NCBI RefSeq assembly: GCF_003334815.1
Contig: NZ_QOWO01000092.1
Direction: 5' to 3' (one strand)
DNA: 1,816 nt
From: Escherichia coli
GTDB lineage: Bacteria; Pseudomonadota; Gammaproteobacteria; Enterobacterales; Enterobacteriaceae
Shown here: piece by piece, positions 141-1,603 of the stretch
How the letters are laid out: each line of letters starts with the position of its first letter
Position numbering within the stretch: the stretch's first letter is position 1
The notes under the pieces: model-generated
The model's input: the letters and a program-made list of their open reading frames with translations, nothing else
The model's database searches: none
Told to the model about the DNA's origin: nothing
Position numbers and translations under genes: made by a program

Positions 141-169
141 TTGTTCCGTCTGAAAGTAATCACTATGAT
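141..169 (+). promoter_or_regulatory. Putative sigma70 promoter of the TA operon: -35 TTGTTC (141-146), 17-bp spacer, -10 TATGAT (164-169)
   Basis: Hexamers read directly from the sequence. The -10 matches TATAAT at 5 of 6 positions, the -35 matches TTGACA at 4 of 6, and the spacing is 17 bp. It sits 27 bp upstream of the antitoxin start. Not experimentally supported; an alternative -35 (TTGCCT, 136-141) is also possible. Confidence 0.3.
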
Positions 170-182
170 TAAATATGATTAA
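164..182 (+). repeat. Tandem direct repeat TATGATTAA-a-TATGATTAA (candidate RHH antitoxin operator)
   Basis: Two exact 9-bp copies at 164-172 and 174-182, offset by 10 bp (one helical turn). The first copy coincides with the predicted -10. RHH antitoxins typically autoregulate by binding direct or inverted repeats that overlap their own promoter. The repeat is seen directly; the operator role is inferred. Confidence 0.5.
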
Positions 183-195
183 CAACTAATCGGAT

Positions 196-480
196 ATGCA
201 AATGAAAAACAATACCGCACAGGCAACAAAAGTAATTACCGCGCATGTGCCATTACCTATGGCTGATAAAGTCGACCAGATGGCCGCCAGGCTGGAACGC
301 TCCCGGGGCTGGGTTATCAAACAGGCGCTTTCTGCATGGCTTGCCCAGGAGGAGGAGCGTAATCGCCTGACGCTGGAAGCCCTGGACGATGTGACATCCG
401 GACAGGTTATCGACCATCAGGCTGTACAGGCCTGGGCGGACAGCCTCAGTACTGACAATCCGTTACCGGTGCCACGCTGA
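196..480 (+). CDS. parD: Type II antitoxin, ribbon-helix-helix (CopG/ParD-like) family
   Basis: 94-aa ORF starting ATG 196 (alternative in-frame ATG at 202). The N-terminus has an RHH-like layout: a short beta-strand (KVITAHVPLPM), then helices with a G-x turn (ADKVDQMAARLERSRGWVIKQALSAWL), resembling the IKQ(Y)AL motif region of RK2 ParD as recalled. The TGA stop (478-480) overlaps the ATG of the downstream ParE-like toxin at 480-482, the classic antitoxin-first coupled TA arrangement. Size and acidic C-terminal tail fit a toxin-binding domain. The symbol is a family-level assignment, not an ortholog call. The Shine-Dalgarno is weak, so the start codon is uncertain. Confidence 0.75.
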   Translation: MQMKNNTAQATKVITAHVPLPMADKVDQMAARLERSRGWVIKQALSAWLAQEEERNRLTLEALDDVTSGQVIDHQAVQAWADSLSTDNPLPVPR

Positions 481-755
481 TGGAACTGAAGTGGACCAGT
501 AAGGCGCTTTCTGATTTGGCGCGGTTATATGATTTTCTGGTGCTGGCCAGTAAACCTGCTGCCGCCAGAACGGTACAGTCCCTGACACAGGCACCGGTCA
601 TTCTGTTAACTCATCCACGTATGGGAGAACAGTTGTTTCAGTTTGAACCCAGGGAGGTCAGACGGATTTTTGCTGGCGAGTACGAAATCCGTTACGAACT
701 TAATGACCAGACTATTTATGTATTGCGCCTGTGGCACACACGAGAAAACAGGTAG
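480..755 (+). CDS. parE: Type II toxin, RelE/ParE superfamily (ParE-like)
   Basis: 91-aa ORF. The C-terminal segment (QTIYVLRLWHTRENR) fits the ParE-type hydrophobic-x-hydrophobic-R-hydrophobic-x-H-x-R pattern, and the size (~90 aa) is typical. The start ATG shares one nucleotide with the antitoxin stop (TGATG at 478-482), implying translational coupling. GC content matches the upstream antitoxin. The symbol is a family-level assignment. Confidence 0.8.
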   Translation: MELKWTSKALSDLARLYDFLVLASKPAAARTVQSLTQAPVILLTHPRMGEQLFQFEPREVRRIFAGEYEIRYELNDQTIYVLRLWHTRENR

Positions 756-860: not shown

Positions 861-1139
861 ATGAATTACGATGAAATAACGAAAATTACCGCTGAACGTA
901 TTAGCGACTACATGACTGAAGCAGTTAATACAGACTCTATTGCCGTTGCGGAAATGTTTCATAACGCTGCATGGGGAGTGCGAACATTGTGGTTTGAACT
1001 CGTCACAAAAATAGATATGGATATGCATAAAAAGAACGGGTATGCGAGTTATGATCTTAGAAGGAAAATCGAAATGCAGCATGAAGAGTTTCAGAAAATG
1101 ACAGAGCGCGAGCAAGTGCCTTTATTGAAATCGCCATAA
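861..1139 (+). CDS. Hypothetical small protein (92 aa), no family recognised
   Basis: ATG at 861 is preceded by a canonical Shine-Dalgarno AGGAG (851-855) with a 5-nt spacer. The ORF ends in three tandem in-frame stops, TAA TAA TAG (1137-1145). The translation has balanced, mildly acidic composition and looks protein-like, unlike the antisense shadow ORF. It is AT-richer (~44% GC in block 901-1000) than the TA operon. I recognise no homology from memory. Confidence 0.55.
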
Positions 1140-1333: not shown

Positions 1334-1603
1334 TTACTTTTTCATGACCGAACCAGAAATATTGCGCGTCAATAAGAGACATTGTGTAAACTCAGTCCTT
1401 TTATCTGGCAGGTTAACCCCTATCAATCTTAGGATGAAACCACGCCATCCTCTGTTTGCCTGGTTATTAATTTCATAAAGACGATTGTTTTCCTCTCGTA
1501 GTTTTGTCCACTCTAAACAAAGTGTTATATCATCCAGTTCTGTGATGTGTTTCACTTTTCCATTGACAGTTACAGTGTTTATTCCATTTCCTGTGATCAT
1601 CAT
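1334..1603 (-). CDS. Hypothetical protein (89 aa), minus strand, coupled to an upstream ORF
   Basis: ORF starting ATGATG (1603..1598), with AAGG 6 nt upstream as a weak Shine-Dalgarno, and stop TAA at 1336..1334. The first ATG overlaps the TGA stop of the upstream minus-strand frame (ATGA, 1603..1600). The N-terminal half (MMITGNGINTVTVNGKVKHITELDDITL...) looks protein-like and the region LREENNRLYEINNQ looks helical. The competing + strand ORF 1290..1478 starts with TTG and looks less protein-like. Very AT-rich, and no family recognised. Confidence 0.4.
   Translation of the reverse strand: MMITGNGINTVTVNGKVKHITELDDITLCLEWTKLREENNRLYEINNQANRGWRGFILRLIGVNLPDKRTEFTQCLLLTRNISGSVMKK

Follow-up and report, generated by a model that had tools for sequence, protein, structure and literature searches.

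Introduction

RHH proteins read DNA through a beta-strand, and in CopG (pMV158) and Arc/Mnt the RHH dimers act cooperatively on adjacent subsites about one turn apart that overlap the promoter. The operators of CopG (pMV158) and Arc/Mnt have been discussed alongside that of V. cholerae ParD2, three dimers of which occupy three GGTA boxes on a single DNA face in consecutive major grooves, single boxes being insufficient (PMC10776004). Occupancy in the V. cholerae ParD2/ParE2 system is set by the toxin:antitoxin ratio, such that a 6:2 complex represses and a 2:2 complex does not bind (PMC10776004). The antitoxin CopA_SO recognises, in its own promoter, a pair of boxes set 10 bp apart, GTANTAC-N3-GTANTAC; binding is lost when these repeats are destroyed, and an equal amount of toxin (1:1) weakens the affinity 40-fold, from 16 nM to 660 nM (PMC8706911). 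CopA_SO/ParE_SO, from the Shewanella oneidensis prophage CP4So (PDB 6IYA, 7ETR), combines a CopG-type RHH protein with a ParE toxin, as does the locus analysed here.

In this study, we examine a stretch of 1,816 nucleotides (hereafter the window) that carries an RHH/ParE operon preceded by a short tandem repeat, and compare the region upstream of the antitoxin gene across homologous loci. Our search of the literature returned no binding, footprint, reporter or transcription-start data for this RHH/ParE system, and no description of the regulation of the module. A full-text search with the repeat and palindrome strings found no relevant paper, and a search on IncI ParDE, yacAB and pO157 TA systems found no operator study of the locus. 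An antitoxin operator is a kind of element that is already known and entirely expected. The locus, in turn, belongs to the backbone of IncI, IncK and IncF plasmids; these are very common, and pO157 and numerous resistance and virulence plasmids are among them.

Results

An RHH/ParE module in a plasmid backbone

The window matches the IncI/IncK and IncF plasmid backbone of E. coli, Shigella, Salmonella and Klebsiella, with at least 5,000 matching plasmid records, some of them 100% identical. On pESBL-117 the matching region begins approximately 0.7 kb downstream of the replication initiator gene, and the 80-nt promoter region has 98.8% identity on pO157 of E. coli O157:H7 Sakai. The candidate operator described below was found by DNA search in more than 1,500 plasmid records.

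The two genes of the module are listed in Table 1. In Pfam the antitoxin matches RHH_1 and PutA_1st only, with no match to the ParD antitoxin family model. Neither protein scored above threshold in NCBIfam or PADLOC, the antitoxin giving sub-threshold NCBIfam matches only (for example, BrnA at 20 bits against a cutoff of 60). Its homologues in the PDB are CopG-family RHH proteins, the nearest solved structure being CopA_SO (E = 1e-3). The module is therefore best called, by predicted protein family, CopG-type RHH/ParE rather than classical ParD/ParE. The toxin gene start at 480 overlaps the antitoxin stop codon. The annotated antitoxin start, ATG 196 (MQMKNN...), is probably two codons too early, the true start being ATG 202: distant homologues start at the equivalent of ATG 202 (MKN...), and the codon at 196 is GTG in the relative L087 and ATA in L090 and L093, both otherwise intact at this place. 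The sole Shine-Dalgarno-like sequence, GGA at 192-194, overlaps predicted operator site 4.

Several other features of the neighbourhood were recorded. Directly 5' of the predicted -35 lies a terminator-like hairpin at 117-141, ATGCGC-tgac-GCGCAT followed by TATTTGCCTT, which close plasmid relatives have as well and which may shield the TA promoter from transcripts that read through from the replication region. Two open reading frames follow the TA pair, of 92 aa (861-1139, plus strand) and 89 aa (1334-1603, minus strand), both without an NCBIfam match; the 89-aa frame is an annotated hypothetical protein in IncI records. Most IncI relatives carry 223 bp (NC_024976 3923-4145) that are missing from the window at 1724/1725. 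The missing segment falls inside a minus-strand gene for a 164-aa hypothetical protein of those relatives, so this gene is probably disrupted in the window.

Table 1. Predicted features of the promoter region and operon, in window coordinates
Feature	Position	Strand	Remarks
Predicted -35, TTGTTC	141-146	+	Weak; only TTG is consensus-like (3/6)
Predicted operator site 1, GTAATCA (reverse complement TGATTAC)	156-162	-	Centre 159; left arm of the central inverted repeat
Predicted -10, TATGAT	164-169	+	Formed by the palindrome spacer 'TA' and 'TGAT' of site 2
Tandem 10-bp units, TATGATTAAA and TATGATTAAC	164-183	+	Repeat finder, family D2
Predicted operator site 2, TGATTAA	166-172	+	Centre 169; overlaps the -10; in the first repeat copy
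Predicted operator site 3, TGATTAA	176-182	+	Centre 179; in the second repeat copy, over the predicted start
Predicted operator site 4, CTAATCG (reverse complement CGATTAG)	186-192	-	Centre 189; degenerate box AATCG (4/5)
Antitoxin gene, RHH (CopG type), presumed repressor	196-480	+	94 aa; Pfam RHH_1, E = 2e-10, residues 14-51
ParE-family toxin gene	480-755	+	Pfam ParE_toxin, E = 3.8e-17, full length

Four boxes overlap the predicted promoter

The earlier note on this DNA had singled out a 9-bp direct repeat, TATGATTAA, at 164-172 and 174-182. Both direct reading of the sequence and the repeat finder return these two copies as 100% identical with a start-to-start distance of 10, and they are the only two exact copies within the window. 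Of 5,000 windows simulated with a first-order Markov model, 121 (2.4%) contained an exact repeat of 9 bp or more at an offset of 9-12 and 46 (0.9%) contained one at an offset of exactly 10; the repeat by itself is unusual, not decisive. The same note had pointed to a related element, CTAATC, at 186-191, which is indeed present and falls exactly on the conserved 10-bp lattice described below. It had missed TAATCA at 157-162, the exact inverted partner of TGATTA at 166-171 and 176-181. The window thus holds four related hexamers (TAATCA, TGATTA, TGATTA and TAATCg), and the candidate operator first proposed needs refining in its extent: the repeat supplies sites 2 and 3 of a predicted array of four that spans 156-192.

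The four boxes immediately precede the antitoxin gene, where they overlap with the predicted core promoter. TTG, a 17-bp spacer and TATGAT make up a predicted sigma-70 promoter, with a predicted transcription start at approximately 175-177. The placement of the -10 in the first repeat copy, proposed from the window alone, agrees with the family profile (cTTG, 17-bp spacer, TATGAT), whose cTTGa element falls at 140-144 (CTTGT) in the window; the 17-bp spacing between the conserved TTG and TATGAT recurs in many loci. A consensus promoter scan preferred the second copy, combining CTGAAA at 150-155, 18 nt and TATGAT at 174-179 with 9/12 matches. The window gave three promoter-like hits against a shuffle expectation of 4.1, which is not above chance, and the consensus scan alone is therefore uninformative. 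With either TATGAT (164-169 or 174-179), the -10 sits inside the box array.

The box is conserved across homologous loci

For the comparison we used 80 loci with relatives of the antitoxin at 70-99% amino acid identity, one genome per species, spanning gamma-, beta-, alpha- and delta-proteobacteria and some metagenome bins, to which four plasmid homologues from the DNA search were added. The conserved TKVLTAH codons served as the anchor, the 130 nt upstream were compared, and removal of near-duplicates left 75 non-redundant upstream regions.

TGATT/AATCA boxes occur upstream of the antitoxin at 2.65 per 130 nt in these 75 loci, an approximately 8-fold enrichment; composition-matched shuffles have 0.31 per 130 nt (maximum 0.57 in 1,000). 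Two 130-nt blocks further upstream contain 0.32-0.35 per 130 nt, and the first 130 nt of coding sequence approximately 0.04. In an unbiased count of 5-mers, AATCA/TGATT reached 199 occurrences where 14.5 were expected, and only the overlapping ATTAA ranked higher. The inverted repeat AATCA-N3-TGATT, at 158-170 in the window, is the best conserved feature of the compared sequences, being exact in 27/75 loci and present with at most one mismatch in 47/75. TGATT-N5-TGATT was found in 21/75 loci, and a direct repeat of period 10, in either orientation, in 34/75. The rule is not universal: in 16/75 loci the 130 nt contain a single box or none, and several of these loci look co-transcribed with an upstream gene.

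Five loci (L014, L017, L019, L029 and L066) have no boxes within 130 nt upstream of the antitoxin and share ...ggctccggcaagatcaagttccgata(a/g)gaggtgcaacATG, which resembles the end of an upstream gene; a more distant upstream promoter probably drives co-transcription of these TA pairs.

A positional profile was built from 59 loci anchored on the central palindrome. It shows cTTGa at -18 to -14 (0.6-1.0 bit), a partly conserved box at -10 to -6, the palindrome AATCA-cTA-TGATT at 0-12 (1.0-1.9 bit) and a further box at 18-22. Within the palindrome, T A T G A T at 6-11 reaches 0.9-1.9 bit and the TGATT of site 2 at 8-12 reaches 1.45-1.88 bit. The boxes carry 1.0-1.9 bit and the spacers approximately 0-0.5 bit; conservation among homologous loci partly reflects shared ancestry, for which the divergence of the spacers in the same alignment is an internal control. 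Comparison across homologous loci, a check for which the earlier note gave non-conservation of the repeat as a refuting outcome, thus came out in favour of the operator reading: over the 75 loci the TGATT box and the 10-bp phasing are strongly conserved and the spacers are not.

As judged from the aligned sequences, the conserved unit is a box of 5-7 bp, TGATT(A/G)A, and not the 9-mer. We rejected TATGATTAA as the recognition unit: only TGATT and the next one or two bases are conserved, and in the relative L004 TATGATT has become TGTGATT. A symmetric box built on the odd palindrome 'ATGAT' was rejected as well, since the A before TGATT is conserved at the central site only, where it belongs to the -10.

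These data bear directly on the possibility that only promoter elements are conserved, with TTG and TATGAT as -35 and -10, the second TATGATTAA as a neutral slippage duplicate and no repressor. TATGAT and TTG do belong to the conserved profile, the 10-bp unit is gained and lost in nature, and the repeat alone has a chance expectation of 1-2%. However, the left arm AATCA matches the -10 in its degree of conservation (1.0-1.7 bit), although it is situated in the promoter spacer. Conservation where the polymerase needs no specific sequence points to a bound protein, beyond promoter signals alone. The outer boxes, 10 bp off on both sides and in either orientation, are conserved too, and boxes occur where a -10 is impossible, for example, as AATCA-N5-AATCA upstream of the palindrome in 16/75 loci. 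We consider an account by promoter signals alone improbable.

The array travels with the toxin-antitoxin pair

A ParE homologue lies downstream on the same strand in 73/75 loci, and the flanks far upstream make up 63 unrelated clusters out of 71, which indicates that only the TA pair accompanies the box array from locus to locus. Between the array and the coding anchor (the TKV codon near the antitoxin start) there are 32 to 117 nt, depending on the locus, with a constant internal geometry. A fixed geometry at a variable distance from the coding sequence fits a DNA-level element tied to the promoter.

We infer that the RHH antitoxin is the probable binder of the array. It has the only DNA-binding fold among the genes that always accompany the array; its beta-strand, T..TAH.P, is invariant across the loci that share the boxes, and the longer form T(K/R)xxTAHVP shows no variation across distant homologues; and CopA_SO and V. 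cholerae ParD2 provide precedents. A different binder might be suspected from the plasmid replication initiator gene near the window (approximately 1 kb): the toxin alone, a plasmid protein of replication or partition, or a regulator of the host, either nucleoid or global. We regard it as hardly probable. The same array is present on both chromosomes and plasmids, in alpha-, beta-, gamma- and delta-proteobacteria, and its flanks are unrelated; the RHH gene and ParE are its only shared neighbours, and in Pfam the ParE toxin shows no DNA-binding fold. The TGATT box is not known to resemble the DnaA, LexA or IHF consensus sequences.

The boxes are arranged on a 10-bp lattice

The spacing of neighbouring boxes depends on their orientation. 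The modal start-to-start distance is 10 for AATCA followed by AATCA (16 cases) and for TGATT followed by TGATT (27 cases), 8 for AATCA followed by TGATT (27 cases) and 12 for TGATT followed by AATCA (21 cases). If the site centre is placed on the fourth base of TGATT, all four modal spacings become 10 bp; this offset was chosen post hoc, although a single parameter accounts for two independent modes (8 and 12). Under this centring the site is in effect the 7-mer TGATTAA, a T-x-A-N-T-x-A pseudo-palindrome.

Adjacent pairs lie exactly 10 bp apart in 91/138 cases for the TGATT core and in 125/204 for the GATT core, and in shuffled sequences such pairs averaged 0.73 and never exceeded 5. Distances between all pairs of sites peak at 10, 20 and 30. 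Three or four sites fall on an exact lattice in 48/75 loci, five sites in none. Orientation patterns are many and include all-direct arrays. In the window the lattice is complete, and site 4 begins 12 bp after the TGATT at 176, the modal spacing for that orientation.

Copy number of the 10-bp unit also differs between homologues. A Pantoea plasmid contig (L058) carries three tandem TGATTAACTA units, all direct, and the Erwinia and Izhakiella homologues (L009 and L010) carry two. Pantoea versus Erwinia/Izhakiella is a second case of phase-keeping change in the copy number of a 10-bp unit.

The lattice also leaves little room for a chance or mutational artefact of AT-rich intergenic DNA that has no function. 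The repeat on its own might be taken that way, as 9-bp repeats at offsets of 9-12 did appear among the simulated windows at the frequency given above. Box sequence and phase are, by contrast, conserved family-wide (the 125 pairs at exactly 10 bp against 0.73), and the two-copy form is retained in approximately 1,470 plasmid records. That the loci are recent copies of one element is argued against by their protein identity of 70-83% and the unrelated flanks. In our judgement chance is very improbable as the source of the array.

Close relatives and one-copy variants

Among eight aligned plasmid relatives, substitutions within 156-192 occur only at 175, 184 and 185, which are in the 3-nt gaps between the 7-bp sites; all four boxes are invariant in these eight. 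The core of site 1 (158-162) is invariant in all close plasmid relatives inspected, and in the one-copy loci L093 and L096 only the outermost base of site 1 is changed (156, G to A). The sequence of the second unit in L004 is TGTGATTAA; TGATT is preserved there and the second -10-like hexamer destroyed.

Approximately 1,471 plasmid records have two copies of the 10-bp unit, and approximately 71 align gap-free to a one-copy form, GTAATCAcTATGATTAAcaaCTAATCG. The one-copy form, seen in L086 and L091-L096, lacks site 3 and has the arrangement AATCA-TGATT-AATCA, as in homologues from Aeromonas, Pectobacterium and Photorhabdus. The toxin gene is broken in all seven one-copy loci inspected (7/7), by at least five different lesions: a deletion that fuses antitoxin and toxin in L086, frameshifts in L091 (the same sequence being found in 23 records), a stop or frameshift in L092, a 3' deletion in L093 and L096, general decay in L094 and a truncation at residue 40 in L095. 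The antitoxin ORF is intact in 5/7 of these loci. Conversely, the toxin is full-length in 6/6 two-copy loci inspected, and among the two-copy records listed 29/35 have an annotated toxin.

The link between a single copy and a broken toxin is a lead rather than a result, since the lineages are not independent samples. Its simplest reading is relaxed selection, in which the toxin dies and slippage then removes one copy, which would imply that selection keeps both copies in place in modules that work. A more interesting alternative is that site number and toxin are co-adapted. More speculatively, and in our view rather unlikely, the operator could be a fixed-length 'ruler' of at most four orientation-free boxes on a strict 10-bp lattice, with the number of boxes matched to the toxin: in E. 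coli and Salmonella plasmids there are two units beside an intact parE and one in the seven inspected loci where it is broken. If the link were causal, box loss could be an adaptive derepression that yields an orphan, anti-addiction antitoxin; alternatively, under the 'ruler' reading, the fourth site may be needed only for a toxin-bridged repressor complex.

Discussion

A candidate autoregulatory operator

Taken together, positions 156-192 very probably form the autoregulatory operator of the RHH-antitoxin/ParE-toxin operon. The earlier note had offered an operator as the interpretation of the repeat, and phylogenetic footprinting across the 75 loci supports it. We dismiss as a negligible prospect control of translation or stability at the RNA level by a 5'-UTR hairpin from AAUCAcuaUGAUU: the inverted repeat could form a stem of 5-6 bp, but the fold of 150-205 has only -5.3 kcal/mol (z-score -0.77 against shuffles), a search of the whole window against Rfam gave nothing at E ≤ 1, the palindrome should not be transcribed because it contains the -10, the distance from array to coding anchor varies between loci, and direct and inverted boxes with constant DNA phasing are unexplained by an RNA stem.

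In the operator model that we favour, the operator would consist of four short asymmetric boxes with the consensus TGATT(A/G)A, usable in either orientation. Their centres at 159, 169, 179 and 189 are exactly one helical turn apart, so the boxes would all be exposed on the same side of the helix. One antitoxin dimer probably contacts each box through its beta-ribbon, a stoichiometry suggested by the box pattern, and adjacent dimers probably bind cooperatively, as for CopG, Arc and V. cholerae ParD2. The array covers both the predicted -10 at 164-169 and the predicted start, and its occupancy would thus keep RNA polymerase out and the operon repressed. Through the toxin:antitoxin ratio, ParE probably shifts this occupancy, for which the broken toxin in every one-copy locus inspected is indirect evidence. 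The tandem repeat that forms sites 2 and 3 may have been gained, and could be lost again, by a duplication or slippage of 10 bp that keeps the phase.

The comparison therefore yields a testable operator model: four boxes, a 10-bp lattice and an overlap with the -10 and the start. The box consensus is valid for homologues across Proteobacteria, where it can serve promoter annotation and the design of binding and reporter experiments. Furthermore, the natural one- and two-copy variants are ready mutants for the effect of site number and toxin on repression.

Comparison with known systems

ParDE-I/YacAB (Kamruzzaman & Iredell 2019) is a ParE-family TA module of IncI, IncF and pINV plasmids, types that it shares with the locus of the window. 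Identity of the two was considered and rejected. The published ParDE-I promoter differs (PMC6614396, Fig. S4), the yacAB primers (PMC9455713) match the ParDE-I promoter and not the window, and the annotation of L091 and L092 gives YacA and YacB an operon of their own next to the locus. Given the mismatch of promoter and primers, the results of Kamruzzaman & Iredell on ParDE-I do not apply to the locus. In L091 and L092 the YacA/YacB (ParDE-I) operon lies directly upstream of the RHH/ParE locus (129-676 and 136-683, respectively). In some IncI and IncF records, two ParE-type modules thus stand side by side, adjoining the replicon. On a pAA plasmid, two RelE/ParE-like operons that adjoin the FII origin are reported to have no clear toxicity (PMC11950199).

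In CopG and Arc/Mnt, unlike the window, the two subsites form one pseudo-palindrome and no toxin partner is known. The omega repressor of pSM19035 reportedly places one RHH dimer on each short asymmetric repeat, and its repeats are said to work in direct or inverted orientation and in many arrangements. Its heptad, reportedly WATCACW, resembles AATCAC. The omega heptads are, however, said to be contiguous with a 7-bp period, against 10 bp here, and omega is reportedly a global plasmid regulator and not an antitoxin.

V. cholerae ParD2 is like the window in having an RHH antitoxin and short asymmetric boxes; it differs in its antitoxin subfamily, its box and its three sites. CopA_SO/ParE_SO shares the CopG-type RHH and ParE composition, with marginal sequence similarity between CopA_SO and the antitoxin of the window and different beta-strand sequences. 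Its two GTANTAC boxes are palindromic, whereas the window has the asymmetric TGATTAA, in arrays of up to four.
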